Notes: a model not told the origin generated them from the sequence alone. 64,000 nt of DNA from Clostridia bacterium (GCA_045594045.1 JAZNXV010000032.1:14164-78163); one strand, 5' to 3'. Shown: positions 5,004 to 62,647, counted from the stretch's first letter. Program-made: numbers and translations.

Positions 5004-5015
5004 AGGAGAATTTAT

Positions 5016-5288: not shown

Positions 5289-5291
5289 AAT

Positions 5292-42254: not shown

Positions 42255-42827
42255 TTACTCACCCCCTAATTGCTTAAAGGCTTCAAGAGCATCATTTACG
42301 CATGCTATAACCGCCTTTGACGTAATGGTTGCACTTGTAATGCCATTGATTTCGTTTCCGCTTCCGCCACTTTTAACAAAAGCAAACGGACCCGTTTTAT
42401 CCTTAAACTGACCGATAAACTGTTCCTTTGTTGCGTTTTGACCAAGGCCCGGGGTTTCATCGTCAGCACTTAAAACTACCGACGAAAGCACCTTGCCGCT
42501 GTTATCTATAGCGGTCATTACCTTAACAGAACCGCCATAGCCTTGATTTTCTGCAGTAAATACGTATCCTAACTTATTACCTGAAGAGTCTAAGGCTTCC
42601 GAAAACAAAACGCTTTTTTTCGAAAGCGTAATTTCCTTTTCTTCAGAGAATTCCGAAGCACTTGCAAAGGTAAGTTTCCGTGCCTCTTTTGCCTGAGCAA
42701 GCTGATTCTCTAAAATTTTATCAGCAGTTATACTGTTTGTGCCCGCAAGCAAAAACGCCGAAACAAAGCAAATCAAAAACAGAGTAAGTGCAGGAAGAAT
42801 AACTTCTTTTAAATTGATTTTTTTCAT
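42255..42827 (-). CDS. rnfG: Rnf complex subunit G (FMN-binding)
   Basis: N-terminal TM helix and the FMN attachment motif SGATITS-like (ITSATITSKA). Confidence 0.85.
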   Translation of the reverse strand: MKKINLKEVILPALTLFLICFVSAFLLAGTNSITADKILENQLAQAKEARKLTFASASEFSEEKEITLSKKSVLFSEALDSSGNKLGYVFTAENQGYGGSVKVMTAIDNSGKVLSSVVLSADDETPGLGQNATKEQFIGQFKDKTGPFAFVKSGGSGNEINGITSATITSKAVIACVNDALEAFKQLGGE

Positions 42828-43768
42828 TTCTTCGCCTCCCCCACTGCGCCAAAGGGCTTTTTCAAGGTTAAATTATCAATGTGCGGCACAAGAATATTCA
42901 TCAACAAAATGGCATAGGAAACGCCTTCGGGCAACGCTCCGAAAAGCCTTATAACCGACGTAATCAATCCGCAACCAATACCGAAAATAATTTTGCCGAG
43001 GGTGCTTACAGGAGAGGTAACGTAATCCGTTGCCATAAAAATTGAGCCTAAAAGCAAGCCTCCCGATAAAATTTGATATGTAGCAAAAATAACGTCCTGC
43101 CTATACAAAAGGCTGAATACAAACACCGTTAAAACAAACGTTACGGGAATCGTAGGTGCAATTACCCTGCGCGCAACAAGATATATTCCGCCCAAAATTA
43201 AGGCAACGGAGCAAACCTCGCCCATACTGCCCGAATGCACTCCGAAAAGCATTTGAGTAAGCGTAGGCAACGGCTGTTCTGCTGACATAAGCGCCAAGGG
43301 TGAAGCACTTGTTACGCCGTCAGCGCCCCAAAAAGAAGGTGCCGTCCAAGTAGTCATCGCACCTGCAAAGCAAAGCATCAATATAATGCGCGCCGTTATG
43401 GCGGGGTTGACGAAGTTTTGACCTAAGCCGCCAAAGAACTGTTTTACAACAACTATTGCAACCACGCTTCCGAAAGCACCCATCCAAAGAGGCAAGGTCG
43501 GTGGCAGGTTAAGTGCTAAAAGCAAGCCTGTTACCGCGGCACTTAAATCACCGATAGTGTTATCGCGCTTCATAATTTTGCGCGAAATATATTCAGCTAA
43601 AACTGCTGATAAAACGCACACTATCGTAAGCAACAATGCATTAATACCAAAATAAATTATTGCTACTACAAGGGCGGGAACTAATGCTATGATAACATCA
43701 AGCATTATTCGTCTTGTGGAAACGTTGTCCCTGATATGAGGTGAAGAAGTTACTTTTAATTCTTTCAT
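42824..43768 (-). CDS. rnfD: Rnf complex subunit D
   Basis: The start MKELKVTSSPHIRD is the typical RnfD N-terminus. ATG 43768 overlaps the rnfC stop (ATGA). Confidence 0.9.
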   Translation of the reverse strand: MKELKVTSSPHIRDNVSTRRIMLDVIIALVPALVVAIIYFGINALLLTIVCVLSAVLAEYISRKIMKRDNTIGDLSAAVTGLLLALNLPPTLPLWMGAFGSVVAIVVVKQFFGGLGQNFVNPAITARIILMLCFAGAMTTWTAPSFWGADGVTSASPLALMSAEQPLPTLTQMLFGVHSGSMGEVCSVALILGGIYLVARRVIAPTIPVTFVLTVFVFSLLYRQDVIFATYQILSGGLLLGSIFMATDYVTSPVSTLGKIIFGIGCGLITSVIRLFGALPEGVSYAILLMNILVPHIDNLTLKKPFGAVGEAKK

Positions 43769-45096
43769 CACTTTTTCTCCTCTCTGATTATTTGTTTTCC
43801 AAGGCGCATATACTGTACAAGCGGTATTTTTGCGGGGCAGGAATATGAGCAACAGCCACACTCAACGCACGCTAAAACGTCAAGCTTTTTAAGCCGTGCA
43901 ATATCTTTATTTTTCTGTGCAAGCTTAATAAATAAAGGTGATAAGCTCATAGGGCAATTTTTTGCACATCTACCGCATTTAATGCAAGGACTTTCCTTTT
44001 CCGTATAATCCTTATCAAAAGCTAATATGGCGTTATTCTGTTTGCAAATGGGCGCATCTAAATTGTAGATACTGCTGCCCATCATAACGCCACCTAAAAT
44101 TACTTTTTCAGGCTCTTTTTCAAATCCGCCACAGTAGTCAAGAACGTGAGAAATACTTGTGCCTACGGGTACGCGCAAATTCATTCGGTTCTTTATTGCC
44201 GTTCCGTCAACGGTTAAAGAACGTGTAACCAAAGGCTTGCCCGTTTTTAAATATCTCGAAATAAATGCTGTTGTTGCAATATTCATAACGATACAACCAA
44301 CGTCAGCAGGAAGCTTGCCATCGGGCACACGCCTGCCTGTGACGGAATATACTATCATTTTCTCTGCACCTTGGGGATATTTGCTCTTTAAAGTAAAAAC
44401 TTCCGTATCCCTTTGGTCAGTATCACTTTTCTCCGCAATTTTTTTGAGAATTTTTATAGCCTCGGGCTTGTTATCTTCAACAGCGATAACAACGCGCTTA
44501 ATGCGTAAAAATTCTGCTATTACATACACGCCCGAAAGCACGTCCCAGGAATTATCAATAGCTTCTCTGTAGTCAACGGTTATATAGGGCTCACATTCTG
44601 CCGCATTGATAATGAGGGTATCTATGTTTTTATCCTCGGGCACGTTCAGCTTTACGTGGGTGGGAAAGCCCGCGCCGCCCAAGCCTACTGCGCCCGACTC
44701 TCTTACCGCCGCAATAAAATCCTCTTTTGTTTCAACCTTAGGCGCTTTAATGCCTTCAAAAAGCTCTATTTTGCCGTCACAGGCAATGGTTACGCCAATT
44801 GTCGTTGCACCTCCTGCCAATTTTATAGGCTCAATTTTTTCAACAACGCCTGAAACAGAAGAATGTATAGGCGCGCTAACAAATTTATCGCTATCGCCTA
44901 TTTTTTGACCCACTTTTACCGTTTCACCCACCTTGACAACAGGCTCGCAAGGGGCGCCTATATGCTGAAGCATTGGAATAGTAACTTTTTCGGGGCAAGG
45001 AATACGCTGGGCAGACATATTCATTGTATGCTTATTGTGAGGGACGTTTACGCCACCCGATACGCATTTTTGAATAATTCGTTTTAAACTGCTCAT
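43768..45096 (-). CDS. rnfC: Rnf complex subunit C
   Basis: 442 aa with a GGAGFP nucleotide-binding motif and two C-terminal 4Fe-4S motifs (CIKCGRCAKNCP, CVECGCCSYSCP). Confidence 0.9.
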   Translation of the reverse strand: MSSLKRIIQKCVSGGVNVPHNKHTMNMSAQRIPCPEKVTIPMLQHIGAPCEPVVKVGETVKVGQKIGDSDKFVSAPIHSSVSGVVEKIEPIKLAGGATTIGVTIACDGKIELFEGIKAPKVETKEDFIAAVRESGAVGLGGAGFPTHVKLNVPEDKNIDTLIINAAECEPYITVDYREAIDNSWDVLSGVYVIAEFLRIKRVVIAVEDNKPEAIKILKKIAEKSDTDQRDTEVFTLKSKYPQGAEKMIVYSVTGRRVPDGKLPADVGCIVMNIATTAFISRYLKTGKPLVTRSLTVDGTAIKNRMNLRVPVGTSISHVLDYCGGFEKEPEKVILGGVMMGSSIYNLDAPICKQNNAILAFDKDYTEKESPCIKCGRCAKNCPMSLSPLFIKLAQKNKDIARLKKLDVLACVECGCCSYSCPAKIPLVQYMRLGKQIIREEKK

Positions 45097-45605
45097 TAAT
45101 TTTTCTCCTTGAAATTTATTTTGTTAAGATACGGTTTTACGGCATTTAATATTACGCCCGTTAAGAAACCGCACACAAGCCCAAACAAAGCAAGCACAAT
45201 GGCATAATAAAAAATGCTTGAGGTTTTTGTGAGAATAAATGCGCCTAAAAGTTGACCCGAATTATGTATAAGCGCACCTATAATGCTTATGCCTACAAGC
45301 GAAAACGGGCTTCTCTTAATTTTTAAAAGTGCCGCGGTTACAAAAGCGGAAGAAATGCCGCCTAAGGCACTTAATAAAAACGCCGCGCCGCCGCGGGTAA
45401 AAAACGCAAACAGCGCTTTTAATACAGAAATGTATATTGCTCCGCCCGTACCAAAGGTCATTGCCGCGGCAACGGTTATTATATTCGAAAAGCCGGGCTT
45501 TGCGCCCACGGGAAGAAAGGGTATTGCCAGCAAGCCTTCAAAAGCGGTAAGCACAAGTGCAAGTGCCCCCATTATTCCCCAAACTGCTATTTTTTTTGCT
45601 TTCAT
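45096..45605 (-). CDS. Gx transporter family membrane protein (heptaprenyl diphosphate synthase component I-like)
   Basis: About 170 aa with 5 TM helices. It has the conserved apbE/NusG_II/Gx neighbourhood upstream of rnf. Confidence 0.6.
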   Translation of the reverse strand: MKAKKIAVWGIMGALALVLTAFEGLLAIPFLPVGAKPGFSNIITVAAAMTFGTGGAIYISVLKALFAFFTRGGAAFLLSALGGISSAFVTAALLKIKRSPFSLVGISIIGALIHNSGQLLGAFILTKTSSIFYYAIVLALFGLVCGFLTGVILNAVKPYLNKINFKEKN

Positions 45606-45639
45606 TTTATCTCCAACTAAATTAAGCACTTGATTATAA

Positions 45640-46011
45640 TTATCCCGTAATACCGTCGGGAGAAGAAACGTCGCCCTGAACGACGATTACTATTCCCTTG
45701 GGCACACAAGCGCTCACCGTATGATACTTATTAAGCCAACCGCTTCTGACGCACGTTTTATCGGGGCAGTCCGAGCTTAAAAAGCAAATTCTGTCCTTTT
45801 CAACCCTGATACGCGCATTATTGATTGTAATTTCGTAGGGTTCAGAAACTTCCGAAAGCTCAATAACGTGCTCTACTTCACCCTGAACGTAAACGGTTGC
45901 CGTTACACGCTTATCAAGATGCGGTGCAAAAAACGTTATTAACGCCATGCTTGCAATAATAATCAACACAGCCACTATTAAAAAAACGTCGCCCTTTTTA
46001 AAAAATTTCAT
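45640..46011 (-). CDS. NusG domain II-containing protein (DUF1312)
   Basis: TM anchor plus a beta-rich domain with CPDKTC and a conserved neighbourhood. The start is uncertain (46011 or 46053). Confidence 0.6.
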   Translation of the reverse strand: MKFFKKGDVFLIVAVLIIIASMALITFFAPHLDKRVTATVYVQGEVEHVIELSEVSEPYEITINNARIRVEKDRICFLSSDCPDKTCVRSGWLNKYHTVSACVPKGIVIVVQGDVSSPDGITG

Positions 46012-46033
46012 AAAACGCCCTTTGTCTTGCATT

Positions 46034-47086
46034 TTAAAAATGCAAGCCGTCACTTTCTATCACGAAGCTGTCAACGCCCACTGTTTTTACTGTGCCGCTT
46101 GAAAAAATAAAAATTCCACGGGCATCGTATTTGTTTAAAAGAGCCGCTCCGTCTTCAAAGCCTAAAACGAAGCAGGCAGTTGAAAGTCCATCGGAAAGAG
46201 CTCCGCTTGAAGCTATTACCGTTACGCTAACAAGCTCGCTTTTTGCAGGGTAGCCCGTTTTTGAATCTAAAATATGGTGATATTTTATATTGTCAACCTC
46301 TAAAAATCTTTCATAACTGCCGGAGGTAGAAACAAAACCCTCTTTTAGCATAAACGTGCCTGCATATCCTGCTCCCATAGGATTGCGCACCGCAACGCGC
46401 CAGGACTCGCCGTTAGGATTTTTACCGTAAAAAAGCAGACTTCCCCCAACGGAAATAACCGCGCTTTTACAAGAGCTTTTTTCTAAAACGTCCTTCGCCT
46501 TATCGCAGGCGTAGCCCTTGCCTATTGCGCCCAAATCAACCTTTTGCCCTTGATATAGCGTCGCCTTTTCCTTACCTATAGTGCATTTTTCAGCACCTAC
46601 AAGCTTTAACGCGCCGTCTATCTCTTCTTGGGAAGGCTTCTTTGCATCTTCAAAGCCGATACGCCAAAGGGACGTCAGGCTTCCTACGGTATAATCAAAT
46701 GCACCGCCCGACGATAAAAAAATATCCTGACACACCTCAAGCTGTTCAAGCAAATATTTATCGGTTGTCTCTCCCGTAACGTTAAGAGCGTTTACTGCCG
46801 AATCCTTTATTTCGGCAGAAGAGGCAATTTCAACAGAATTGATTTCTGCTAAAATTTCGCTTGTTATCCCTTGATAGTCATCAGAATAAATTTTTATATT
46901 TCCCGCTGTGCCCATTGCAACGAAAGCAGTTTCGTTGGCTTTAACGGAAAAGAAGCTTTGATGTATAAGCAAAGAAAATATCAGCACCGTTACAAGTAAC
47001 GCGCCGGCGACCAAAATTGTTTTTTTTCTTTTTTCAGCCGCGTTTGCTTTGGGCTGTATATTTTGCCGCGTATTTTCTCTTTGCAA
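46034..47086 (-). CDS. apbE: FAD:protein FMN transferase ApbE
   Basis: 350 aa with a membrane anchor and ApbE-family sequence (DLGAIGKGYA, YHHILDSKTG). Confidence 0.85.
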   Translation of the reverse strand: MQRENTRQNIQPKANAAEKRKKTILVAGALLVTVLIFSLLIHQSFFSVKANETAFVAMGTAGNIKIYSDDYQGITSEILAEINSVEIASSAEIKDSAVNALNVTGETTDKYLLEQLEVCQDIFLSSGGAFDYTVGSLTSLWRIGFEDAKKPSQEEIDGALKLVGAEKCTIGKEKATLYQGQKVDLGAIGKGYACDKAKDVLEKSSCKSAVISVGGSLLFYGKNPNGESWRVAVRNPMGAGYAGTFMLKEGFVSTSGSYERFLEVDNIKYHHILDSKTGYPAKSELVSVTVIASSGALSDGLSTACFVLGFEDGAALLNKYDARGIFIFSSGTVKTVGVDSFVIESDGLHF

Positions 47087-47178
47087 AAGTTCACTCTCCC
47101 GTTAAAATTCAGCACGAGCTATGCTTTTATTATACAATATTGACTCATTATTATCAACAACTTTAATTGTAAATTTGC

Positions 47179-47206
47179 AAAAAAACGGCTTTCAAGCCGT
47201 TTTTTA
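47179..47206. terminator. bidirectional terminator downstream of ychF
   Basis: Stem AAAAACGGCTT / AAGCCGTTTTT with a 3-nt loop. Confidence 0.75.
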
Positions 47207-47210
47207 ATAA

Positions 47211-48299
47211 TTAAACATTAAACCTGAAAAGCGTAATATCGCCGTCCTGCATAACGTATTCTTTTCCTTCTGAGCGCACAAGGCCCTTTTCCTTGGCGGC
47301 GGTCATTGACTTATATTTCATAAATTCATCATAGGCAATAATCTCTGCCCTGATAAAGCCGCGCTCGAAATCAGAGTGAATTTTACCTGCGGCTTGGGGC
47401 GCTTTAGTGCCTTCGGTAATGGTCCAGGCACGGACCTCGCTTTCACCTGCGGTTAAGAAAGAAATCAACCCAAGCAATTTATAGCTTGCTTTAACAAGAC
47501 GGTTCAGCCCGCTTTCTTCTAAGCCATACTCACCTAAGAACATTTCTTTTTCTTCAGGCTCAAGCTGAGAAAGCTCTTCTTCAATCTTTGCAGAAATCAC
47601 AAGCACCTGGTCCCCGTCTTTACTTGCAAGATCTCTAAGGCGGTTAACGCCTTCAGGCTCAGAGCCGATTTCGTCTTCCGAAATATTTGCCGCATAAATA
47701 ATAGGCTTTGTGGTAAGCAAGAAGAACGTTTTTGCAAGAGTCTGCTCTTCCTTTGACAATTCCATATTGCGAACGGGCTTTTCGTTTTGAAGCTGTTCAA
47801 TCATTCTCTCAAGAAGCTCAACTTCTTCTATTGCAGCTTTATCGTTACCGCGAGCCGCCTTTTGTGCCTTGTCAAGACGTTTTTCGCAAGTTTCAAGGTC
47901 AGCCAGAATAAGCTCTAAATTTATAGTTTCAACGTCACGAACAGGGTCAATAGAGCCGTCAACGTGAATAATATCGGAATTTTCAAAGCAACGCACTACG
48001 TGAACGATTGCGTCAACCTCTCTTATATGGGACAAAAACTTGTTACCCAAGCCTTCGCCTTTAGATGCGCCGCGAACCAATCCTGCAATATCAACAAATT
48101 CAATAAAAGCAGGGGTGTATTTTTTTGGATTATATATTTTTGCAAGCTCGTCAAGTCTTACATCAGGAACAGATACTACGCCCACGTTAGGCTCGATAGT
48201 GCAGAAGGGATAGTTTGCCGCTTCTGCTCCTGCATTGGTTATAGCGTTAAAAAGTGTGCTTTTACCTACGTTAGGTAAGCCTACAACACCTAATTTCAT
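47211..48299 (-). CDS. ychF: redox-regulated ATPase YchF (Obg-like GTPase family)
   Basis: 362 aa with the G1 motif GLPNVGKST and a C-terminal TGS-like domain. Confidence 0.95.
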   Translation of the reverse strand: MKLGVVGLPNVGKSTLFNAITNAGAEAANYPFCTIEPNVGVVSVPDVRLDELAKIYNPKKYTPAFIEFVDIAGLVRGASKGEGLGNKFLSHIREVDAIVHVVRCFENSDIIHVDGSIDPVRDVETINLELILADLETCEKRLDKAQKAARGNDKAAIEEVELLERMIEQLQNEKPVRNMELSKEEQTLAKTFFLLTTKPIIYAANISEDEIGSEPEGVNRLRDLASKDGDQVLVISAKIEEELSQLEPEEKEMFLGEYGLEESGLNRLVKASYKLLGLISFLTAGESEVRAWTITEGTKAPQAAGKIHSDFERGFIRAEIIAYDEFMKYKSMTAAKEKGLVRSEGKEYVMQDGDITLFRFNV

Positions 48300-48365
48300 A
48301 ATTCTCTATTTCTCCTTTAAAATCCTTTATTTATCAGGGTTTTCGGAGTATGGCGTATATCTACT

Positions 48366-48398
48366 ACTCCATTTTTACTCCATTTTTACTCCATTTTC
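48366..48398. repeat. 3 x 11-bp tandem repeat ACTCCATTTTT at the int-proximal element end (candidate arm-type integrase sites)
   Basis: Units start at 48366, 48377 and 48388. On the minus strand they read GGAGTAAAAAT x3 and run into GGAGTAGTAGAT. Confidence 0.8.
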
Positions 48399-48411
48399 GC
48401 ATGGAATTATA

Positions 48412-49620
48412 TTAAGATTCATCTAAAACCTGATTATTTTCAAATTGCTTTATAGCCTGGTCCATAGACTCAGTTGTAACGTGAACATAACGGTCCATCG
48501 TTGTTTTGATACTGGCATGGCCTAGTAACTTTTGCAGCACCTTCGGTTGCATACCTGCCTCGATTGCTCTTGTGGCGTAGGTATGGCGCAGAGCGTGCAT
48601 ACAAAATCGTTTGATTTTCGCTTCATCACAAAGCTTATAAAGATGTGTGTCGTAGGAACTGTTCTTTGCCGGTTCTCCTGTACGCCAATTGATAAACACA
48701 AGATTTTCCATCACAAGCTGAGAGGTGGCACCTGTTCGCCTGTCTATGTACTCAAGTGTTTCTAATAGTAAGGGAGACTTTTTCCTATGTTCACGATTAT
48801 CCCATATCTCTTTCAGAATGTTGTATGCGCGTTCTGTCAGAGGTATGGTGCGATAGCTTTGCGGTGTTTTGGGCGGTCCTGCTCGCCAATATCCTTGTTT
48901 GTGTCTGTACTCCAAAGTTTTGTTGACGGTAAGCGTACGCTTTTCAAAATCAATCGCATCCCAAGTAAGTCCTATCAGCTCACCCGTTCGCAAACCCGTC
49001 TCAAGAATCAAAGCGTATTGATTATAATTATGAGAACGCTTTGCTGCCTGAAGAAAAATCCGTTGCTCTTCACGGGTTAGGAATTTTATATCATCCTTTG
49101 CTCGAACAGGTTTTGTGTATCGAACGCCGTTCATCGGGTGCTTTATGATTAAATCATTCATCAATGCCGCTTTCAGCATCGTACCCATTGCAATATAGGT
49201 TTGTCGGATGGTTGAGCCTGCATAGGTTTCATCCATTTCCAGTAAAACCTTTTTGCAATGCATTGGCTTTACGTTAGCAATTGCCATTTTACCGATGACC
49301 GGTTGAATATTGAAGGTGTACCGTTCGCGGTAGTTTCGCAACGTGTTCGGTGCGAGATCTCCAACGATATTTTCTATCCAAAATTCAAACCATTCATCAA
49401 CCGTAGTTTCGGTCGGAACAAAAATGCCTTCATGCTTATCGGCGTACTTGCTTTCTTCAATCCAGTTGCGAGCTTCGGGAATGGTAGCGAAATATTTTTC
49501 GTGACGATTGCCTAATTTGTCAACAAATCTTGCGCTGTATAACCCATCCTTTCTTTGACGAATGCCTTTGCCGCATTCTTTACCCTTTAAATTCTTTCCC
49601 AATATGTACTCCTTTCCCAC
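48412..49620 (-). CDS. int: tyrosine-type site-specific integrase, Tn916 Int-like with N-terminal arm-binding domain
   Basis: Catalytic motifs HALRHTYAT and LLGHASIKTTMDRYVHV. The N-terminus GIRQRKDGLYSARFVDKLGNRHEKYF resembles the Tn916 Int-N domain. An alternative start is TTG 49602 behind AAGGAG. Confidence 0.9.
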   Translation of the reverse strand: MGKEYILGKNLKGKECGKGIRQRKDGLYSARFVDKLGNRHEKYFATIPEARNWIEESKYADKHEGIFVPTETTVDEWFEFWIENIVGDLAPNTLRNYRERYTFNIQPVIGKMAIANVKPMHCKKVLLEMDETYAGSTIRQTYIAMGTMLKAALMNDLIIKHPMNGVRYTKPVRAKDDIKFLTREEQRIFLQAAKRSHNYNQYALILETGLRTGELIGLTWDAIDFEKRTLTVNKTLEYRHKQGYWRAGPPKTPQSYRTIPLTERAYNILKEIWDNREHRKKSPLLLETLEYIDRRTGATSQLVMENLVFINWRTGEPAKNSSYDTHLYKLCDEAKIKRFCMHALRHTYATRAIEAGMQPKVLQKLLGHASIKTTMDRYVHVTTESMDQAIKQFENNQVLDES

Positions 49621-53422: not shown

Positions 53423-53854
53423 TTATACTCTTGGTTCTCCATACTCTCTGCGCATAGCACTCATGGAAACGACCCACTGTTTACCAAACTTACACACGTC
53501 AACGCCTTCAACTAATTTACCATAGCTGATGGCTTTTCTGAGTGTGCTTTCGTTCAGAGCCCAAAGGTCAGTGGCATCACTGAATGCCATAAGACCATCA
53601 AAGGGAGTTTCTACCTCAACGCCGTTCTCCCATAGTTCATCACAGGAGAGATCTAAATCATCATTCCATACGATGCCGTGGCCGCCTACATCAACGATAA
53701 CCTCAGAGAACAGGTGAGGATCCTTCAACTCCGCAAAGAATGGTATGCGTTCAAACAAAGGCTTCACATCGTATATCTTAGTGCACCCTTCTACAAACTG
53801 AACGCTTAAGCGATATTCAGGCAACGGAGAAATATTTTTGATCTTATGAAACAT
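53423..53854 (-). CDS. DUF2442 domain protein with C-terminal HTH
   Basis: N-terminal DUF2442-like domain (ISPLPEYRLSVQFVEGCTKIYDVKPLF...). The C-terminus ATDLWALNESTLRKAISYGKLVEGVDVCKFGKQWVV is a typical Firmicute HTH. Confidence 0.65.
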   Translation of the reverse strand: MFHKIKNISPLPEYRLSVQFVEGCTKIYDVKPLFERIPFFAELKDPHLFSEVIVDVGGHGIVWNDDLDLSCDELWENGVEVETPFDGLMAFSDATDLWALNESTLRKAISYGKLVEGVDVCKFGKQWVVSMSAMRREYGEPRV

Positions 53855-53864
53855 AATAGCCTCC

Positions 53865-54170
53865 TTACTCTAACGGAGGAAGATGCTTGAAATCCTGAGT
53901 TTCCCAAATAGCAACGAGCTCGTTTTTGTGAAGGGATATCCATTCTCTTACCATTTCAAGCGCTTTAGAAGGCAAAGCACCTTCCAACACCTTTCCGTCA
54001 GCGATTGTGATTGCCGCCATATCATCGCCGTAAATTGCGTGGATATGCGGCGGATTGTGTTCCTTTTGTAAAAAGTACATACGGATTGTAATTCCGTAAA
54101 ATCTTGATAATACTGGCACTTCATCCACTCCTTTCAATTGCATTATATCACGGTATCGTGATATTGTCAA
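53865..54170 (-). CDS. DUF4160 domain protein
   Basis: FYGITIRMYFLQKEHNPPHIHAIYGD is the DUF4160 hallmark. It is paired with the DUF2442 gene. Confidence 0.7.
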   Translation of the reverse strand: MTISRYRDIMQLKGVDEVPVLSRFYGITIRMYFLQKEHNPPHIHAIYGDDMAAITIADGKVLEGALPSKALEMVREWISLHKNELVAIWETQDFKHLPPLE

Positions 54171-54207
54171 TATGTCTTGCTAATATTATTGTATACAAAA
54201 AAGTGTT

Positions 54208-54225
54208 GTTAATGTTTTCTTGAAA
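54208..54225 (+). promoter_or_regulatory. element 18-mer box, copy c (upstream of the serine recombinase gene)
   Basis: Exact GTTAATGTTTTCTTGAAA. TTGAAA is followed 18 bp later by TATATT, about 55 nt upstream of ATG 54309. Confidence 0.6.
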
Positions 54226-54281
54226 GACGAATTTTGTGTTTCCTATATTATCTCAAAACAAAAATAGCCTGAACATTGTAA

Positions 54282-54923
<642 letters not shown>

Positions 54924-54926
54924 GAA

Positions 54927-54960
54927 ACGGCTATCAAAAGGTGTACCTTTTGATAGCCGT
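54927..54960. promoter_or_regulatory. IRL: palindromic candidate recombination site (also a possible terminator of the recombinase gene)
   Basis: ACGGCTATCAAAAGGT-GT-ACCTTTTGATAGCCGT, with 16-bp arms around a central GT (54943-54944), followed by TTTTAT. Confidence 0.6.
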
Positions 54961-54972
54961 TTTATGATGTAC

Positions 54973-55001
54973 ATTATATCATAAAACACTTGGAAGCGCA
55001 A
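54973..55001 (-). promoter_or_regulatory. near-consensus promoter inside the candidate invertible cassette, currently facing away from the surface-protein gene
   Basis: On the minus strand: TTGCGC (55001-54996), 17-bp spacer, TGaTATAAT extended -10 (hexamer 54978-54973). Confidence 0.55.
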
Positions 55002-55076
55002 CATAAAAAAATGAAAAATATTGAATTTTGTCTTTTATTATCTAAAAACGCAAAAAGTATTTGAATTAATAAATTA

Positions 55077-55102
55077 TTCTCAAAAGGTACACCTTTTGAG
55101 AA
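55077..55102. promoter_or_regulatory. IRR: palindromic candidate recombination site, inverted copy of the IRL core
   Basis: TTCTCAAAAGGT-AC-ACCTTTTGAGAA. The 20-bp core 55080-55099 is the exact reverse complement of 54934-54953. Confidence 0.6.
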
Positions 55103-55125
55103 ATGTTGGAAATGGAGGCGTTTAT

Positions 55126-58100
55126 ATGAAAAACTCTTTGCTCAAGAAGATGCTTGCAACTATCATTGCAGTTATATTAGTTGTTGGCATCTCGGCAGGA
55201 ACAAGCATTTTAGTTGATAAAAAAAGCGTTCCTGCATCAACAACAATCGAAAACGGCCTATCTGCTTACGATCTTGCTGTTCAAAACGGTTACAAAGGTG
55301 ATCTTGAACAATGGCTGATGTCGCTTGTTGGTGAAACAGGCACTGCGGGCTCTAATGGCAAGTCAGCGTATGAGCTTGCTTGCGAAAACGGATATAAGGG
55401 TACTATGACCGAATGGTTGGGTTCTCTTATCGGTACGCCCGGTGAAAATGGCAAGGTTGGTAAAGATGGCAAATCTGCTTATGAACTTGCTGTTGAAAAT
55501 GGATATAAAGGCACACTTAATGAGTGGCTTACATCTATACTTGATAAAACTGGTGCTGATGGAGCAAACGGTGCTGACGGTAAGTCGGCATATCAGTTAG
55601 CAGTTGAAAACGGATTTACCGGAACTATGTCTGAGTGGCTCGATTCTCTCGTTGGACGTAATGGTTTATCTGCATATCAAGTTGCTAAAAACAATGGTTT
55701 TACTGGTAGCGAAAGCGAATGGTTGTCAACTCTTGTTGGTGTTGCAGGTACAAATGGCGTTGACGGTAAATCCGCATATCAAATTGCCAAGGAGAACGGT
55801 TTTACCGGTACCGAAAACGAATGGTTACAGTCTCTTGTTGGACTTAAGGGTGACAAAGGTGACAAGGGCGATAAAGGTGATACCGGTGCAGCTGGCGCTA
55901 ATGGATTAAATGGTAAGTCTGCATTCGAAATTGCAGTTGCCAATGGCTATACCGGAACTGAAGCCGAATGGTTACAAACACTTGTGGGTGTCAAAGGTGA
56001 CAAAGGCGATAACGGTGCAACAGGTTCCGATGGTAAATCCGCTTATGAGCTTGCGGTATCAAATGGATATACCGGAACTGAAGCCGAGTGGCTGCAAACT
56101 CTTGTAGGCGCGAAAGGCACTGACGGTAAGTCTGCATATGACGTTGCAGTTGACAACGGCTTTATCGGCAACGAAAGCACATGGCTTGCATCTTTAGTCG
56201 GAGAAAAAGGCGATACAGGTGCACAAGGCAAATCAGCATACCAAGTAGCAGTTGCAAATGGCTATATTGGAACCGAACAGGCATGGGTTGCTTCTCTTGT
56301 CGGTGAATCTGCCTACGAAATTGCCGTAAGAAATGGTTATAAAGGAACTGAAGCTGAGTGGTTGGCATCCCTTGTTGGTGAGCCGGGTCAAAAGGGAGAC
56401 AAAGGTGACACCGGAGCAACGGGTGCTAACGGTAAATCCGCTTATGAGCTTGCTGTTTTGGCAGGCTTCGAAGGTGATGAGCAAGAATGGTTTGCTTCAC
56501 TTGTTGGCGCAACCGGCTCTAAGGGTGATAAGGGCGATAAAGGCGACCAAGGAAATAAAGGTGACACCGGTGCAACAGGTGCAGCGGGTAAATCGGCTTA
56601 TGAATTAGCAAAAGAAAACGGTTATACCGGAAGTCTTACGGAATGGCTAGAATCTCTAAAGGGTGAAGCAGCTGCCAAGGGAGACAAAGGTGACAAAGGC
56701 GATACCGGTGCTGACGGAAAGTCTGCATATGATTTAGCAAAAGAAAATGGTTATGAAGGAACCTTGGAAGATTGGCTTGACAGTTTGATAGGAACCAAAG
56801 GAGATAAAGGTGACGCAGGTACAGATGGTAAGTCTGCTTATGACCTTTATTGTCAGAATAATTCTGGCGAAGATATGAGTGAAGCCGAGTGGCTTGCTTC
56901 CTTAAAAGGAATTGCTGGTCAAAACGGAAAAAATGGCAAATCCGCTTATGAGTTATACTGTGAAAATAATTCAGGGGAAGATTTAGACCTTGCTGATTGG
57001 CTTGCTTCTTTACATGGTGACAAAGGTGATGCTGGTGCCGATGGTAAATCCGCTTATGACCTTTATTGCGAAACAAATGAAGGTGTTGAACTTTCTCTTG
57101 AAGAATGGTTAGCCTCATTAGTTGGTGCTGATGGTACGAATGGTAAATCTGCTTATGAATTAGCATATGAAGCTGATAACACAATAGGAACGCAGCAGGA
57201 ATGGCTTTTATCATTAAAAGGAAAAGATGGTAAATCTGCTTACGAAATCTATTGTGAACATCATGAGGGTGAGGATTTATCTGTAGTAGACTGGCTTGCA
57301 TCGCTTAAAGGTGAACAAGGACCTAAGGGTGATAAAGGTGACCCAGGTGTTAATGGAAAAACTCCATATATCAAAGATGGAAATTGGTGGATAGATAATA
57401 CAGATACAGGAATAAAAGCAGAAGCTTCTGACGGTTCAAACGGCAATGATGGTGTAAGCGTTGTTGATAGTTATGTAGATGATAACTTGCATTTATGGAT
57501 TGTGTTATCGAATGGTTCAAAAATTGATGCTGGTTATGTCGGTGTAACGACAGCCAATCCTTCTATCCCAACTAAGTTTACGGTGGTTTTCAAGGACTAT
57601 AACGGCACTATTTTGAAAACTGAAGACGTTGAATCTGGCAAATCTGCTACCGCCCCTACCAATCCTTCCAGAGACGGATACGTATTTGCGGGATGGGATA
57701 AAGATTTTAGTAACATTACCGCTGGTATGGTTGTTAATGCTACATACACTCAAATTACCGAGCCGACCATAAAAATAGCGAATATTACTACATCTGCCGG
57801 TTCTTCGGATGTGGCTGTAACTTTGAACATTATGAACAATCCCGGCATTGTTGGAATGACCTTGAAATTGGGATATGACGATAGCATCTTGACGCTTACA
57901 AGCATTGAGAAAGGCGATGCATTAAGCGAAATGACATTTACAAAGCCGAGAACTTTGAAGAATGGTTGTACACTTCAATGGGATGCTGAAGTAGTGATGC
58001 CTGAGGATGCTACCAACGGCGTTATGCTTACTTTGTATTTTGATGTTTCGGATAGTGCTACAGTGGGTACCCAAAACATTACATTAAGTTATGATAATGG

Positions 58101-58170
58101 TGCCATTATCGACAATGATTTAGCATCGGTGAATATGTCAATTATCAACGGCATTGCTACAATTAATTAA
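55126..58170 (+). CDS. membrane-anchored surface protein: 19 SAYELA-type modules interleaved with collagen-like GXY runs, one Listeria-Bacteroides (Flg_new) repeat, C-terminal cohesin-like domain
   Basis: ATG 55126 follows GGAGG. There is an N-terminal signal anchor (MKNSLLKKMLATIIAVILVVGISAG) and GDKGDKGDKGDTGAAG-type triplets. FTVVFKDYNGT...GYVFAGWD marks the Flg_new repeat. The cohesin-like tail is NNPGIVGMTLKLGYDDSILTLTSIEKGDAL... Confidence 0.85.
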   Translation: MKNSLLKKMLATIIAVILVVGISAGTSILVDKKSVPASTTIENGLSAYDLAVQNGYKGDLEQWLMSLVGETGTAGSNGKSAYELACENGYKGTMTEWLGSLIGTPGENGKVGKDGKSAYELAVENGYKGTLNEWLTSILDKTGADGANGADGKSAYQLAVENGFTGTMSEWLDSLVGRNGLSAYQVAKNNGFTGSESEWLSTLVGVAGTNGVDGKSAYQIAKENGFTGTENEWLQSLVGLKGDKGDKGDKGDTGAAGANGLNGKSAFEIAVANGYTGTEAEWLQTLVGVKGDKGDNGATGSDGKSAYELAVSNGYTGTEAEWLQTLVGAKGTDGKSAYDVAVDNGFIGNESTWLASLVGEKGDTGAQGKSAYQVAVANGYIGTEQAWVASLVGESAYEIAVRNGYKGTEAEWLASLVGEPGQKGDKGDTGATGANGKSAYELAVLAGFEGDEQEWFASLVGATGSKGDKGDKGDQGNKGDTGATGAAGKSAYELAKENGYTGSLTEWLESLKGEAAAKGDKGDKGDTGADGKSAYDLAKENGYEGTLEDWLDSLIGTKGDKGDAGTDGKSAYDLYCQNNSGEDMSEAEWLASLKGIAGQNGKNGKSAYELYCENNSGEDLDLADWLASLHGDKGDAGADGKSAYDLYCETNEGVELSLEEWLASLVGADGTNGKSAYELAYEADNTIGTQQEWLLSLKGKDGKSAYEIYCEHHEGEDLSVVDWLASLKGEQGPKGDKGDPGVNGKTPYIKDGNWWIDNTDTGIKAEASDGSNGNDGVSVVDSYVDDNLHLWIVLSNGSKIDAGYVGVTTANPSIPTKFTVVFKDYNGTILKTEDVESGKSATAPTNPSRDGYVFAGWDKDFSNITAGMVVNATYTQITEPTIKIANITTSAGSSDVAVTLNIMNNPGIVGMTLKLGYDDSILTLTSIEKGDALSEMTFTKPRTLKNGCTLQWDAEVVMPEDATNGVMLTLYFDVSDSATVGTQNITLSYDNGAIIDNDLASVNMSIINGIATIN
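55255..57360 (+). repeat. intragenic repeat array: ~19 copies of a ~25-aa module (K)SAYE[LI]A[VK]xNG[YF]xGTxxEWLxSLxG separated by variable-length Gly-X-Y stretches
   Basis: Modules were counted directly in the translated ORF. Spacer length varies from 0 to ~9 triplets. The last four or five modules are a diverged subtype (SAYDLYCxNNSGEDxxxxEWLASL). Confidence 0.85.
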
Positions 58171-58186: not shown

Positions 58187-61100
58187 ATGAAGTGTAGACG
58201 ATTATTATCCGCACTTTTGGTAGCTGTAATGATATTAAGCAGTATACCATTGAGTGCTATCAGTGTAATAGCTGCTACCGGTTCTGAAACAAAGATTTCA
58301 GTTAACGATACCTTTGCAGCAAGCGGGACAGAGGTCAGCGTTGATGTCATTATCGAAAATAATCCTGGGATTCTAGGTATGACTCTGAAATTAGAGTACG
58401 ATGATGAATATGCAACACTTATGTCCGTTGTTAACGGAGAGGCTTTAAGCGCTATGACTTTTACCGCACCTAAAAGCCTTCAAAGCGGCTGTAATCTCCA
58501 ATGGGATGCTGAGTTTGTAGATGACGAAGATATTATCGATGGAGTAGTAGCCACCTTAACCTTCGAAATTTCCGAAGAAGCTCCTTCAAACAAAGAGATT
58601 GCTATCAGTCTTTCCTATGATAACGGTGCAATTATTGATAATGATTTAAATCCAATCAGCGTTTCGTTATCGAGCGGTACTATCAAAATCTTAGATTATA
58701 CCCCCGGTGATCTTAATGGCGATGGCACAATCAACTCTACAGACGTAGTTTACCTAAGACGATACATAGCTGGTTATGATATTACCATTAAAGAAGCGGC
58801 CGGTGACGTAAATGATGACGGCTTGTTGAACAGTACTGATGTTGTTTTCATAAGAAGATTTATTGCCGGTTACGACATTCAATTGAAGCCTTCTACCCCC
58901 AAGTGTCAGCATGTGATGACGGCGACAGAAGCAAAGGCAGCTTCTTGCACGGAGGATGGCAATATTGCTTATTGGTATTGTGAAGATTGTAACAATTATT
59001 TTAGTGATGCTAATGGACATACTAAAATTGAAATTGAAGAAACCGTAATAGAGGCTACCGGACATACACCTGTTGTGGACCTTCCTAAAGCTCCCACAAA
59101 AACCGAAACAGGCTTGACGGAGGGGTCACATTGCTCGGCATGTAAGGAAGTCATTGTGCCTCAACAAATATTACCTGTTTTAACAAGTTACGCAGTTACT
59201 TATAACATAGCTACAGGAAACAGCGCTAGCTATATTGCTGCGCAAGGTTTAGATTTAACAATTGATGACGATAAACGCTCATATATAAGTCAAGAAGGCC
59301 TTATAGAACTTCCGGTTCTTTCTATTGATGGCTATCAGTTCTTAGGCTGGTACACTGAAGCACCTGAGAATAATAATGCAGTTCAAGTTACTTCAATTCC
59401 TGTAGGTTCAACAGGTAATTATACGTTATATGCGCATTGGCACGAATATACGTATGATATTACATATAAGTTGTATCAGACACCTTTAGGCGAAATAACA
59501 AATGAAGAATATCTTCATTATACTGTTAGCAAAGGTAAGGTTGATTTACCCAATCCTGAGTTACACAACTACGTGTTTATTGGTTGGTATACAGACGATG
59601 GTGTAGAAATGACAAAGATACCTGTTGGAACAACCGGAGATTTAACGTTAAATGCGTATTGGACCAGCAAGAGAAACCTCACTAAAGTAGTTAAAAAATT
59701 AGAAGACCCCATTATTATAGAGAATAGTGACGATGGAGTTATATACTTTACTTATGAACTTGGTACAATTGAAAATGTTCCATTATCAGATGCAATTTGG
59801 ACGATACAAAGTGTATCGGGCTTAGCACAACAAGTTTCCAAAACAGTGTCAACGCAAATTAGTGAGGAGCAAGCAAAGAATATTGCGGAAACTATTTCTA
59901 ATTCAACGGTTGATTCTGGTAGTTGGACTTTATCAAAAGACTGGAACGATGTAACGGAAGTTAATGAAGAATGGGCAGAACAGAATGGATTAACCCAGGA
60001 AGAAGCAAACACACAAACAAAAAGCAGTTCAGGAACATATAGCGTTACGGATTCCACGGGCGGAACGAAAACCAAGACAACAACAGATGGAACAACAACA
60101 GTTGATTATAATAGTCAGAATTATACGCACGGAAACAGTGCTGAATTTAATGCGAAAGTTAGTGGTTCGTATTCAAACAAAGGAAATCTTTCAAGTGCGA
60201 TTGCAGGAACATATGAGGTGTCGGCCGAAATTAGTGGAGGTTACGAACAACATCAAGAAACAAACGAACATACTGGCACTGATACAACTACAGTGGATAC
60301 AACAGTTAAGTCCGGTACAGCAACATTTAACAAAGCATCCACATCTACAAACACTCAGTCTGCCAGTGAAAGTGTTACTGTAAAAAATGCAATTTCACAG
60401 ATTATAAGCAATACAAAGGGATATGGTAAGTCATACTCTTCTGGCGGAGCCAATAGCGAATCGCAAGGGTTTAGTTCAACAGATAGTAAGAGCGTAAATA
60501 CATCTTCCACACTTACATATTTTACATCCAAGACTGAAACAACTACAACAACTTATTCCACTGATGGTAAAAATGAAGGTTGTTACCGATTAGTTGTAGC
60601 AGGCACCATCCATGTGTTTGGCGTTGTAGGATATGATGTTGCAACAAAATCTTATTTTGCGTATACTTTTAACGTATTAGATGATAAAACCTATGAATTC
60701 CTTGATTATTCGCCTACTTTAAGTTTTGATGACTATGAAAATGGTGCAATACCTTTCGAAATCCCGTATTTTGTACATGAGTACGTTATAGATAAGACTG
60801 TTATGACAGATGGTCTTATATTTAAAACAAACACAACTAATGGTACAGCAACTGTTGTTGCATATGATGGTGCTGATAGTGATATTACTATTCCTTCGTA
60901 TTTTACCTCTGGTAACGTTGCATACAAAGTTAATGCTTTATCAGCTAGTGCATTTGCAGGTAAAAATGTACGTTCGGTAGTTTTGAGTGATTATATAACA
61001 GAATTACCAGACGGTGCATTTAAAAATTGTGCGCAATTGGAAGAAATTTCAGGATACTTCACAAAAATTGGTGCAGAAGCATTTAGTGGATGTGCTAAAC

Positions 61101-62647
61101 TCAACAAGTATAACATAACCTCAAGCATAGTGAAAATCGGCGAAAATGCGTTTGCTGGCGTTGAAGAAATTTATGTTAATGCTATAGATAAAGAAAGCGC
61201 ATTGGCAGAAGCTAATAAGAAATATCCCAATCTTGATGATGGCGAATTACTTATTTGCGCAAAGTCAATAACACAAGACGTAATTGATTCTGCTATAAAC
61301 TCAGGAGCAGATAATATAATGTTAAACATTTCAAATGTTATCGACAATATAGGTTTAACTCTTAATGTACCTGCAATCACGTCGTTTGAACTGCAAGGTG
61401 GCTTAAAAGAATATAAAGACTTAAAACTTAATTCAGATGCAGAGACAACCACAATAAAGGATATTACTATCCATAATAGCAAACAAATTCCTTTGGAAAT
61501 ATCCTCAAAAGTATTAAAATTAGATGCTGCAACAATAGAAGGAAATGGCTTTGTTCTTTTGCTTAATGCGGACACACCTACTGTTTCGTTAACAAGAGAT
61601 AGCAGATTGATTTCTGTGGAAAAAGAAGCGGTTGTATGGAAAAATCCTTCAATTTCATCAAGTGTTGTAGATAATGCTGTTGGTACTTTGGATATAACAG
61701 GAAACATTTATGTTTGTGGTGATATCGAAGGTAAAGATTACATAAATGTTGAAAGTGGTGCAATTATCAGCATATCCGAAAGCGAATTTGAAAATTATAT
61801 CAAAGGCATTTATACTGTTACGTTTAATGCTAATGGCGGTCAAGTAAGTATGATAGATAAGACAGTATTTTATGGCTCCCAATTCGGAGAACTTCCAATA
61901 CCTACTCTTGACTACCATACTTTTGATGGCTGGTTTACAGAGAATGGTACCGAAGTAACGGCTGATACAATTATGACGGAGGCAAAAGATATTGTTCTTA
62001 ATGCACATTGGACGCAAAACGATGCGTCTGGCTGGGTTTTAGAATCTGAGGTTCCAAGTGATGCTGAAATAGTTAATGAAAAATGGACGTATGATTTAAC
62101 CACTAAAATAACTTCTAGCAGTAATAATGTTTCTGGTTACAATCTATATGATGCAACGTGGGTATGGAGCAACTATGGCCACTGGACAAATTGGTCCTCA
62201 AGCGCAGTAGAATCAAGTGATTCCAGAGAAGTGGAAACAAAGAAAGTTGTAGACCGCGCTTCTTATACACAGTGGAACATATATTATTATCGTTATTGGA
62301 ATACAACGTATGGAGCATACTATTATACGTTTTCATCTGCTTATGGCGGAACCTTGTATCAAAGGTCTCTTCCCGAATCTAGCTTAGCATTTAGCAAATA
62401 TGCTTCCGGACGAGATGCTTACATTATTATTAATGAGGCCGACAGGAATTTCCGTGGAGAACTTTGGTTTGTAAGTTCAACTGAAACAATTCCTGAGATT
62501 GCACATACTGAATATAGATACAGAGAAAGAACGAAAATATATACATATTATCACAGCAAGACAGAGGCGAAAGAATCGTTCTCGCAAGTTACACCTAGTG
62601 ATTCTATTAGCAACGTTCAACATTGGGTTCAGTACCGCGCAAAATAA
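58187..62647 (+). CDS. large secreted multidomain protein: signal peptide, cohesin-like domain, type-I dockerin, Flg_new repeats, Thr/Ser-rich region, BspA-type leucine-rich repeats, C-terminal Trp/Tyr-rich domain
   Basis: ATG 58187 follows GAGAGGAGA. The cohesin is paralogous to the upstream protein's tail (NNPGILGMTLKLEYDDEYATLMSVVNGEAL). The dockerin has duplicated Ca-binding loops DLNGDGTINSTDVVYLRRYIAG and DVNDDGLLNSTDVVFIRRFIAG (nt ~58706-58876). The LRR segment is ITIPSYF...AFAGKNVRSVVLSDYITELPDGAFKNC. Confidence 0.85.
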   Translation: MKCRRLLSALLVAVMILSSIPLSAISVIAATGSETKISVNDTFAASGTEVSVDVIIENNPGILGMTLKLEYDDEYATLMSVVNGEALSAMTFTAPKSLQSGCNLQWDAEFVDDEDIIDGVVATLTFEISEEAPSNKEIAISLSYDNGAIIDNDLNPISVSLSSGTIKILDYTPGDLNGDGTINSTDVVYLRRYIAGYDITIKEAAGDVNDDGLLNSTDVVFIRRFIAGYDIQLKPSTPKCQHVMTATEAKAASCTEDGNIAYWYCEDCNNYFSDANGHTKIEIEETVIEATGHTPVVDLPKAPTKTETGLTEGSHCSACKEVIVPQQILPVLTSYAVTYNIATGNSASYIAAQGLDLTIDDDKRSYISQEGLIELPVLSIDGYQFLGWYTEAPENNNAVQVTSIPVGSTGNYTLYAHWHEYTYDITYKLYQTPLGEITNEEYLHYTVSKGKVDLPNPELHNYVFIGWYTDDGVEMTKIPVGTTGDLTLNAYWTSKRNLTKVVKKLEDPIIIENSDDGVIYFTYELGTIENVPLSDAIWTIQSVSGLAQQVSKTVSTQISEEQAKNIAETISNSTVDSGSWTLSKDWNDVTEVNEEWAEQNGLTQEEANTQTKSSSGTYSVTDSTGGTKTKTTTDGTTTVDYNSQNYTHGNSAEFNAKVSGSYSNKGNLSSAIAGTYEVSAEISGGYEQHQETNEHTGTDTTTVDTTVKSGTATFNKASTSTNTQSASESVTVKNAISQIISNTKGYGKSYSSGGANSESQGFSSTDSKSVNTSSTLTYFTSKTETTTTTYSTDGKNEGCYRLVVAGTIHVFGVVGYDVATKSYFAYTFNVLDDKTYEFLDYSPTLSFDDYENGAIPFEIPYFVHEYVIDKTVMTDGLIFKTNTTNGTATVVAYDGADSDITIPSYFTSGNVAYKVNALSASAFAGKNVRSVVLSDYITELPDGAFKNCAQLEEISGYFTKIGAEAFSGCAKLNKYNITSSIVKIGENAFAGVEEIYVNAIDKESALAEANKKYPNLDDGELLICAKSITQDVIDSAINSGADNIMLNISNVIDNIGLTLNVPAITSFELQGGLKEYKDLKLNSDAETTTIKDITIHNSKQIPLEISSKVLKLDAATIEGNGFVLLLNADTPTVSLTRDSRLISVEKEAVVWKNPSISSSVVDNAVGTLDITGNIYVCGDIEGKDYINVESGAIISISESEFENYIKGIYTVTFNANGGQVSMIDKTVFYGSQFGELPIPTLDYHTFDGWFTENGTEVTADTIMTEAKDIVLNAHWTQNDASGWVLESEVPSDAEIVNEKWTYDLTTKITSSSNNVSGYNLYDATWVWSNYGHWTNWSSSAVESSDSREVETKKVVDRASYTQWNIYYYRYWNTTYGAYYYTFSSAYGGTLYQRSLPESSLAFSKYASGRDAYIIINEADRNFRGELWFVSSTETIPEIAHTEYRYRERTKIYTYYHSKTEAKESFSQVTPSDSISNVQHWVQYRAK

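Follow-up and report, generated by a model that had tools for sequence, protein, structure and literature searches.

A putative serine-recombinase promoter inversion switch ahead of cohesin and dockerin surface-protein genes in a Clostridia bacterium

The window analysed here, a 64,000-nucleotide stretch of DNA from a Clostridia bacterium (GCA_045594045.1 JAZNXV010000032.1:14164-78163), encodes a small serine recombinase whose gene is followed by two palindromic sites, the predicted left and right recombination sites (IRL and IRR). The sites enclose a short cassette containing a predicted promoter, and two genes for surface proteins (cargo genes 1 and 2, the first with a cohesin and the second with a dockerin domain) lie immediately beyond (Table 1). 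This arrangement is examined here as a candidate invertible promoter switch, together with related loci from other Clostridia.

Table 1. Positions of the switch locus and neighbouring features, counted from the first nucleotide of the window
Feature	Position	Strand	Description
Small serine recombinase gene	54309-54923	+	204 amino acids (aa); Sin-like, presumed invertase; PF00239, E 6e-26; outside the invertible segment
Recombinase promoter (candidate)	54220-54249		
IRL, left recombination site (predicted)	54925-54962	none	Perfect palindrome with 18-nt arms, AAACGGCTATCAAAAGGT GT ACCTTTTGATAGCCGTTT; GT at 54943-54944
IRL core	54934-54953		TCAAAAGGT-GT-ACCTTTTGA
Invertible segment (predicted)	54945-55088	none	144 bp between the central dinucleotides; A/T-rich, phased A/T tracts, promoter inside
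Cassette promoter (predicted)	54973-55001	minus	-35 TTGCGC (reverse complement of 54996-55001), 17-nt spacer, extended -10 TGaTATAAT (reverse complement of 54973-54981); -10 at 54978-54973
Cassette -10 after inversion (predicted)	55055-55060	plus	From mirroring the cassette about both site centres
IRR, right recombination site (predicted)	55077-55102	none	Perfect palindrome with 12-nt arms, TTCTCAAAAGGT-AC-ACCTTTTGAGAA; AC at 55089-55090
IRR core	55080-55099		TCAAAAGGT-AC-ACCTTTTGA
ON-state junctions (predicted)			GGCTATCAAAAGGTGTACCTTTTGAGAATAATTT and AAAACGGCTATCAAAAGGTACACCTTTTGAGAAATG; basis: exchange at the site centres
Junction-spanning stretches of the window inverted in silico			AAACGGCTATCAAAAGGTGTACCTTTTGAGAATAATTTATT and CATCATAAAACGGCTATCAAAAGGTACACCTTTTGAGAAATGTTGG
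Ribosome-binding site (RBS) of cargo gene 1	55114-55118		GGAGG
Cargo gene 1	55126-58170	+	1,014-aa surface protein; N-terminal signal/anchor, collagen repeats, Flg_new, C-terminal cohesin
Cargo gene 2	58188-62647	+	Dockerin, LRR_5 (BspA-type leucine-rich repeat, LRR), Flg_new; RBS GAGAGGAG, ATG 58188
Tyrosine integrase gene	48412-49620	minus	
DUF4160 and DUF2442-HTH open reading frames (ORFs) with their promoter	53423-54170	minus	Divergent from the recombinase gene
Promoter of the DUF4160/DUF2442-HTH pair	54170-54142		Perfect consensus, TTGACA-17-TATAAT with upstream TG

The two sites stand out in the window sequence. Their 20-bp cores, read directly from it, are exact reverse complements (20/20 in an inverted-repeat search of the window). 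Within each core only the centre breaks the palindrome, and the pair is therefore inverted rather than direct by virtue of the central dinucleotide alone. With up to three mismatches allowed, the site motif occurs at these two places only in the 64 kb, where 0.11 copies would be expected by chance, and at least two matches were found in 0 of 100 shuffled sequences. IRL follows the recombinase stop codon after a single base pair. The paired palindromic sites, their reverse-complementary cores, and their GT/AC centres had been proposed in a first-pass annotation made from sequence alone, and all are borne out; the same annotation placed the IRL palindrome at 54927-54960, and it proves to be slightly longer.

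Two other sequences in or near the locus resemble the sites. A direct repeat, 78% identical (54900-54922 and 55037-55059), contains the half-site-like CGCAAAAAGTA (compare CAAAAAGT) 21 nt left of IRL and 29 nt left of IRR; it shows no conservation in the family-wide position profiles described below. A degenerate site-like sequence, CAAAAGGT-GT-TAAGTTTG, is found in the recombinase coding sequence of relatives (L001:3434 and L011:3434; approximately 54741-54760 in the window), where it coincides with codons of the conserved AKAKG(I/V)KFGRP motif and is probably a coding by-product.

The site centres are 146 bp apart, or approximately 14 helical turns, and the predicted cassette promoter faces the recombinase gene in the window orientation. 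Inversion would carry its -10 to the plus strand, pointing at cargo gene 1 (Table 1). No plus-strand promoter in 54924-55126 scored above 9/12 in a consensus scan, and the gap between the IRR palindrome and the cargo 1 start codon is just 23 nt, leaving no space for a fixed promoter there. An Rfam scan of 54200-55400 returned sub-threshold hairpin noise only. These results agree with the first-pass annotation, which had described the minus-strand promoter as present and facing the recombinase gene, put its -10 at about the same plus-strand position after inversion, seen no comparable plus-strand promoter in the interval, and taken the window to represent the OFF state; the last point also fits the orientation of 51 of the 60 classifiable cassettes in the survey below.

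Sequence comparison places the recombinase nearest to Sin and the resolvases rather than with the Hin/Gin or Mpi invertases. Its nearest solved relative in a PDB sequence search is Sin/Bin3 (2r0q; E 2e-29, residues 4-193 aligned), with the gamma-delta and Tn3 resolvases following at E 1e-17 to 1e-18 and Gin at 2e-13. The catalytic motifs of small serine recombinases are retained and align with those of Sin (RVSS, with Ser11; SIDRLGRNY; ER..KRRQAQGI). Membership of the Din invertases (Hin, Gin, Cin, Pin) was rejected on this ranking, in which Sin and the resolvases stand above Gin, and membership of Mpi on a score of 44.1 bits against a cut-off of 272 (NCBIfam equivalog model NF009949). The directly adjacent small serine recombinase gene of the first-pass annotation is upheld, and Hin and Mpi, its precedents, hold as functional likenesses (promoter invertons) but not, by these tests, as the nearest kin of the enzyme. 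Close relatives of the recombinase number in the thousands in public assemblies.

Evidence that the cassette inverts comes from contigs of different samples that encode identical recombinase proteins and were compared in their downstream DNA. Three lineages were found in both orientations, as the first-pass annotation had suggested that homologous loci might be. In lineage P0008 (recombinase 94% identical to that of the window), the promoter faces the recombinase in L197 and the cargo in L198; the flanks of the two contigs are free of mismatches (0/1236 and 0/430), and the inner 145 nt differ at 1 position as reverse complement and at 84 in the same orientation. In lineage P0019 (92% identical), L182 faces the recombinase and L183 and L184 face the cargo; L182 and L183 match completely in both flanks (0/1835 and 0/1031 mismatches) and in the inner segment read as reverse complement (0/145). 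L182 is collinear with 54210-56076 of the window at 87% nucleotide identity, a stretch that takes in the recombinase gene, the cassette, and the first part of cargo gene 1, and is therefore the orthologous locus with the same cargo. Lineage P0083 (86% identical) has L192 and L193 in one state and L189, L190, and L194 in the other, with flank mismatches of 7/958 and 0/31 and, between L192 and L189, inner mismatches of 4/145 as reverse complement and 95/145 in the same orientation. A more distant pair, L106 and L107, has recombinase flanks that are 90% identical and cassettes that are 85% identical as reverse complement only.

The junctions in the flipped contigs match exactly those predicted in advance for exchange at the site centres. 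Allele differences between the half-sites of L191 and L192 (P0083) confine the crossover to the 9 bp AAGGT-AC-AC, central dinucleotide included. These comparisons support the view that the cassette is a genuine invertible DNA switch, present in the window in its predicted OFF state.

Some contigs of these and other lineages show further rearrangements. In lineage P0039, six contigs (L175-L178, L180, and L181) lack the cassette and four (L172-L174 and L179) carry it, with identical recombinase and upstream genes; the cassette-less contigs retain one site, identical to the expected ON-state IRR, 56 bp before the cargo ATG, and their cargo ORF is called at 206 aa versus 1,522 aa. This form looks like a locked variant produced by a 145-bp deletion between the short direct repeats of the ON state. 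L191 is a fold-back contig that continues, right of the cassette, as the recombinase 3′ end in reverse complement (2 of 61 positions mismatched), probably through a wrong assembly path at the inverted repeats. Two low-coverage contigs of lineage P0003 (L195 and L196; recombinase 95% identical to that of the window) have IRL and the promoter half of the cassette in common, diverge mid-cassette from each other and from their relatives, and have no IRR; the divergence could reflect chimeric assembly or another rearrangement.

Scans with the recombinase protein across GTDB species representatives and metagenome contigs recovered 160 loci at 61-86% identity, most of them from metagenome-assembled genomes of Acutalibacteraceae, Oscillospiraceae, Lachnospiraceae, and other Clostridia. 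With the closer lineages included, the full survey comprised 171 related loci in addition to the window and yielded 80 distinct cassettes. Of the 148 loci with at least 350 nt of downstream sequence, 78 have a recognisable site pair immediately behind the recombinase gene, as do 42 of 55 at 70% identity or above. The site centres are reverse complements of each other in all 80 cassettes, through nine combinations related by compensatory changes (GT/AC 52, AC/GT 11, TT/AA 5, CT/AG 3, AG/CT 3, AT/AT 3, GC/GC 1, AA/TT 1, and CC/GG 1). Crossover by serine recombinases leaves 2-nt overhangs (PMC2428073; PMC3241671), which must re-pair after exchange; hairpin loops or operators would give no reason for such covariation.

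The promoter is conserved along with the sites. A motif TTG(C/A)AA-17-TGnTAnAAT, with its -10 approximately 20-21 nt from the nearer site core, is present in either orientation in 60 of the 80 cassettes; it points to the recombinase in 51 and to the cargo in 9, the other 20 being uncalled. Among cassettes that allowed a call on promoter direction as well as on flank type, the flanks extend the site palindromes when the promoter faces the recombinase (27 vs 0) and are hybrid when it faces the cargo (4 vs 0), the left flank of IRL then being the same as the left flank of IRR. Flank type thus tracks promoter direction in the way that exchange at the core would predict.

The spacing of the site centres falls into clusters (127, 135-139, 145-148, 154-160, 166-169, 174-177, and 186-188 bp) that correspond to 12-18 helical turns. 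The best period is 10.35 bp (resultant R = 0.72), and none of 5000 jittered sets was as periodic; AA/TT steps in the cassette interiors are phased at 10.5 bp with a power of 0.894, versus 0.219 in shuffles and 0.19-0.22 in control segments (non-homologous DNA from cargo genes and upstream regions), the significance values being inflated by the partial relatedness of the cassettes, although the pattern remains evident. Whole-turn spacing and phased A/T tracts fit a tight protein-mediated loop in intrinsically curved DNA. Position profiles of the 60 oriented cassettes revealed no conserved accessory site or extra motif besides the promoter and the phased A/T tracts.

Two surveyed loci depart from the simple arrangement and hint that the system has versions with several sites or several enzymes. 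In L034, three sites share a symmetric AT centre (4682, 8032, and 8178), one after the recombinase gene and a pair 3.4 kb downstream; in L031, two recombinase paralogues stand in tandem (matches at 4001-4561 and 4732-5313).

The genes downstream of the cassettes are diverse. Among the 73 cassettes that could be scored, the cargoes include zinc-ribbon, collagen-repeat, and BspA LRR proteins, AMP-binding enzymes, glycosyl hydrolases and transferases, a teichoic-acid glycerophosphotransferase, one BrxA, and one PD-T4-6-like kinase; the majority are surface or envelope proteins and few are defence genes. This diversity indicates a portable module. The switch over a cohesin/dockerin fibre described in the first-pass annotation is accordingly one case of a widespread module placed before very diverse genes.

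In the window orientation, IRL is predicted to be a strong bidirectional terminator as well as a recombination site. The computed plus-strand RNA hairpin has an 18-bp stem, a free energy of -27.6 kcal/mol, and a UUUUAU tail; its minus-strand counterpart (-25.9 kcal/mol) precedes CCUACUUUUU, and the transcript of the cassette promoter, with a predicted start near 54966, would begin only approximately 4 nt before that hairpin and give a short terminated RNA. In the window inverted in silico the IRL hairpin falls to -9.2 kcal/mol, and the leader from the promoter (predicted plus-strand start near 55067) toward the cargo 1 RBS is approximately 58 nt long with a 9-bp stem only. The same asymmetry is seen across the family: in loci whose promoter faces the recombinase, the palindrome runs on into the flanks for a median of 6 nt at IRL versus 1 nt at IRR, and this extension is mostly absent in the opposite state. 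We read this as a terminator that would be split between fixed and invertible DNA and exist only in the OFF state. The first-pass annotation had counted a role of the hairpins as terminators only against the switch; the IRL hairpin appears instead to be part of its mechanism.

The locus is very probably a site-specific inversion switch (inverton) that works as follows. Dimers of the Sin-like recombinase would bind the two sites, IRL and IRR, each a 12-2-12 arrangement, in inverted polarity 146 bp apart, and would bring them into synapsis by looping the intrinsically curved, A/T-tract-rich cassette (approximately 14 turns). The enzyme would then cut at GT and AC, rotate the half-sites, and religate them, inverting the 144-bp segment with its sigma-70-type extended -10 promoter, located approximately 20 nt from one end. 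In the OFF state, the cassette flank beside the promoter would pair with the fixed flank outside IRL to form the 18-bp-stem hairpin with U tracts on both sides; this hairpin would terminate transcription of the recombinase gene and also the cassette promoter's own transcript, leaving the cohesin and dockerin surface-protein genes with no promoter. In the ON state, the long hairpin would be dismantled (from -27.6 to -9.2 kcal/mol) and the promoter, with its -10 now on the plus strand, would drive transcription into the cargo genes through the short leader. Promoter activity and orientation-dependent expression of the cargo are inferred from the sequence and its conserved geometry.

Several observations weigh against this interpretation. 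The -35 hexamer of the window promoter fits the consensus at 3 of 6 positions only, for which reason a consensus scanner skips the minus-strand promoter. The linked recombinase is the presumed catalyst of inversion from its linkage and the site architecture only, and approximately half of its distant relatives (60-70% identity) have no recognisable site pair. An exact look-up found the window's own recombinase in no public assembly outside its own contig, and switching in the window's own strain is deduced from its intact sites and intact recombinase gene. The predicted ON junction GGCTATCAAAARGTNNACYTTTTGAGAA has 0 matches in JGI metagenome contigs; the same junction is present in ENA assemblies (L183, L184, and L198), so that the miss reflects the contents of the JGI collection. 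Contig ends, which might have marked mixed orientations, are not enriched downstream of the recombinase gene (11, vs 14 upstream, within 250 bp); L012, L020, and L185 are among the few that stop precisely at a site, with no overall excess, and contig ends were therefore not used as evidence.

Part of this evidence could be taken to mean that the hairpins are static, IRL serving as the recombinase terminator and IRR as an operator or leader hairpin, in a window copy that no longer inverts or never did. IRL would certainly make a very good terminator, with its 18-bp stem, its energy of -27.6 kcal/mol, and its U tract, all ten P0010-lineage contigs share one orientation with the window, and the ON junction is missing from the JGI metagenomes. 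A static copy is nonetheless very unlikely: the cores still match 20/20 as inverted repeats, the intact recombinase ORF retains its catalytic motifs, the orthologous locus and two further lineages occur in both orientations, and neither a terminator loop nor an operator has reason to keep its centres reverse-complementary through nine combinations. Inversion without the recombinase, by homologous recombination or by replication template switching between short inverted repeats, is less probable still and can be regarded as highly improbable. Inverted repeats of 20-38 bp do exist, and the cassette-less P0039 variant resembles a deletion between short direct repeats, but the site pair directly follows this recombinase gene in 78 loci from many Clostridia families, the sites follow the 12-2-12 plan on which serine recombinases cross over, the exchange has been located within 9 bp around the centre, and the whole-helical-turn spacing points to a protein-mediated loop.

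It is also unlikely that inversion is real and has some output other than bringing the cassette promoter to bear on the cargo. The switch might assemble and dismantle the IRL terminator, so that in the flipped state the cargo is read from the recombinase promoter, for which there is a candidate upstream of the gene (Table 1); the long hairpin is indeed found only in the state in which the promoter faces the recombinase. The cassette promoter is antisense to the recombinase gene in that same state and might serve to control it, but with a start so close ahead of the terminator hairpin, within a few nucleotides, it is expected to yield little antisense RNA. The promoter stands at a fixed distance of approximately 20 nt from the site and, once flipped, faces the cargo with no intervening terminator. 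Both outputs are better seen as additions to the promoter switch than as alternatives to it.

Comparable switches are known from several bacteria. Mpi of Bacteroides fragilis, a small serine recombinase, reportedly flips promoter cassettes of approximately 150-200 bp that control surface structures (Coyne et al. 2003, as cited in PMC11892184). It shares with the present system the enzyme class, the short promoter cassettes, the link to surface structures, and a gut anaerobe as host. Unlike Mpi, which acts in trans on many dispersed promoters, each recombinase gene here lies beside its own cassette; there is one site pair in the 64 kb, and the inverted-repeat sequences are unrelated. The RecV switches of Clostridioides difficile (cwpV, flgB) and fimS of E. 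coli are likewise short invertible regulatory segments upstream of surface-structure genes, and C. difficile is itself a member of the Clostridia. These depend on tyrosine recombinases and other site types, whereas a serine recombinase is present here; moreover, cwpV orientation controls a leader terminator and not the position of a promoter.

Like Hin with its hix sites and the other Din invertases (Gin, Cin, Pin), the system combines a serine recombinase, inversion of a segment bearing a promoter or gene, and 12-2-12 sites in which the centre sets polarity. IRR shares with hix and gix this layout, the outer TTC/TTATC, and an A-tract (PMC3241671 Table 3), as seen from hixL, TTCTTGAAAACC AA GGTTTTTGATAA, beside IRR, TTCTCAAAAGGT AC ACCTTTTGAGAA. 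The inner three bases of the half-site are GGT here versus ACC in hix/gix, and the centres GT/AC versus AA/GA. The invertible segment is 144 bp, in contrast to approximately 1-3 kb in the Hin/Din systems, and the recombinase gene lies outside it; no Fis or enhancer system is evident here, the position profiles showing no conserved motif beyond the promoter and the phased A/T tracts.

Sin and beta, small serine recombinases of Gram-positive bacteria and of Firmicutes plasmids, are the nearest solved relatives of the window enzyme. Their cleavage of site I produces 2-nt overhangs, and they need HU or IHF to bend the DNA (PMC2428073); beta recombinase is credited there with inversion as well (Canosa et al. 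2003, as cited in PMC2428073). The Sin res site spans 86 bp, comprising site I, an HU-binding spacer, and direct-repeat site II, and its direct orientation leads to resolution (PMC2428073). Here, unlike in Sin, the sites are single palindromes in inverted polarity with no res-type arrangement of site I, spacer, and site II. An architectural protein may here be aided, or its place taken, by the phased A/T tracts.

Small serine recombinases have also been described as markers of antiphage defence loci, with their role left open and inversion mentioned as a possibility (Andersen et al. 2026; PMC13552941). The present loci resemble these in having a small serine recombinase immediately upstream of variable cargo, with BrxA and the PD-T4-6-like kinase among the cargoes, and differ from them in that most cargoes are surface or envelope proteins. 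EF_B0058 of pTEF2, the reference protein of that study, was considered as a close relative and rejected; it is only 30% identical, lies 54 bp from its cargo, and has no cassette, so the link to the defence-associated recombinases is loose.

Cargo gene 2 of the window begins 17 nt past cargo gene 1, and the two are probably co-transcribed. Over its N-terminal 550 aa, cargo 1 shares 95% identity with the cargo of L001, from lineage P0010. Cargo 1 carries its cohesin at the C-terminus, and cargo 2 its dockerin near the N-terminus (residues 184-237 of the called ORF); docking of the second protein onto the first could thus give a two-part surface structure switched as a unit.

In the stretch 42824-49620, core genes (Rnf subunits, ApbE, and YchF) extend to approximately 48300, and a tyrosine integrase gene follows. 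GC content falls past approximately 49 kb, and homology to the orthologous locus L182 starts only at 54210; together these features indicate that the switch and its cargo lie in an island, with strain-variable genes upstream of the switch. No tRNA gene that could mark an attachment site was found in the 64-kb window. The location on a mobile element proposed in the first-pass annotation is plausible only, the island beginning just after the integrase gene. Upstream of the recombinase gene and divergent from it, the DUF4160 ORF and the ORF with DUF2442 and a helix-turn-helix (HTH) domain resemble a small toxin-antitoxin module.

Promoter inversion is a classic route to phase variation. The examples known from gut Firmicutes rely mostly on enzymes of the tyrosine class; among serine recombinases, Hin and Bacteroides Mpi are the ones studied in depth. 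A literature search returned no paper containing the site sequences and no described family of serine-recombinase promoter invertons in Clostridia, nor is such a family described in two inverton surveys (PMC11892184, PMC11602134); individual members may already be included in genome-wide inverton catalogues. The principle is classical; the novelty, as far as checked, lies in the lineage of the enzyme, the compact and curved cassette of whole helical turns, the split terminator, and how broad the family is.

We regard as evenly balanced the broader proposition that these loci form a large, previously undescribed Clostridia family of portable phase-variation modules, defined by a Sin-like recombinase, hix-like sites, a curved cassette of whole helical turns (12-18), and a split terminator present only in the OFF state. 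If this is true, the module serves giant adhesin and cohesin-dockerin proteins, cell-wall modification enzymes, and some phage-defence genes, and it would provide a concrete function for part of the small serine recombinases found beside variable defence and surface genes, where a cassette is present. Its whole-turn spacing and phased A/T tracts would offer a natural system for studying serine recombinase synapsis of sites approximately 140 bp apart, and the short sites and small enzyme could serve as a genetic switch in anaerobic Gram-positive bacteria. The compact sequence signature would make the switch recognisable from sequence alone in many Clostridia genomes and metagenomes, and with it the ON or OFF state of large surface proteins such as the cohesin-dockerin pair, whose host may be a Ruminococcus/Acutalibacteraceae-like organism, of cell-envelope enzymes, and of some defence genes would become predictable.

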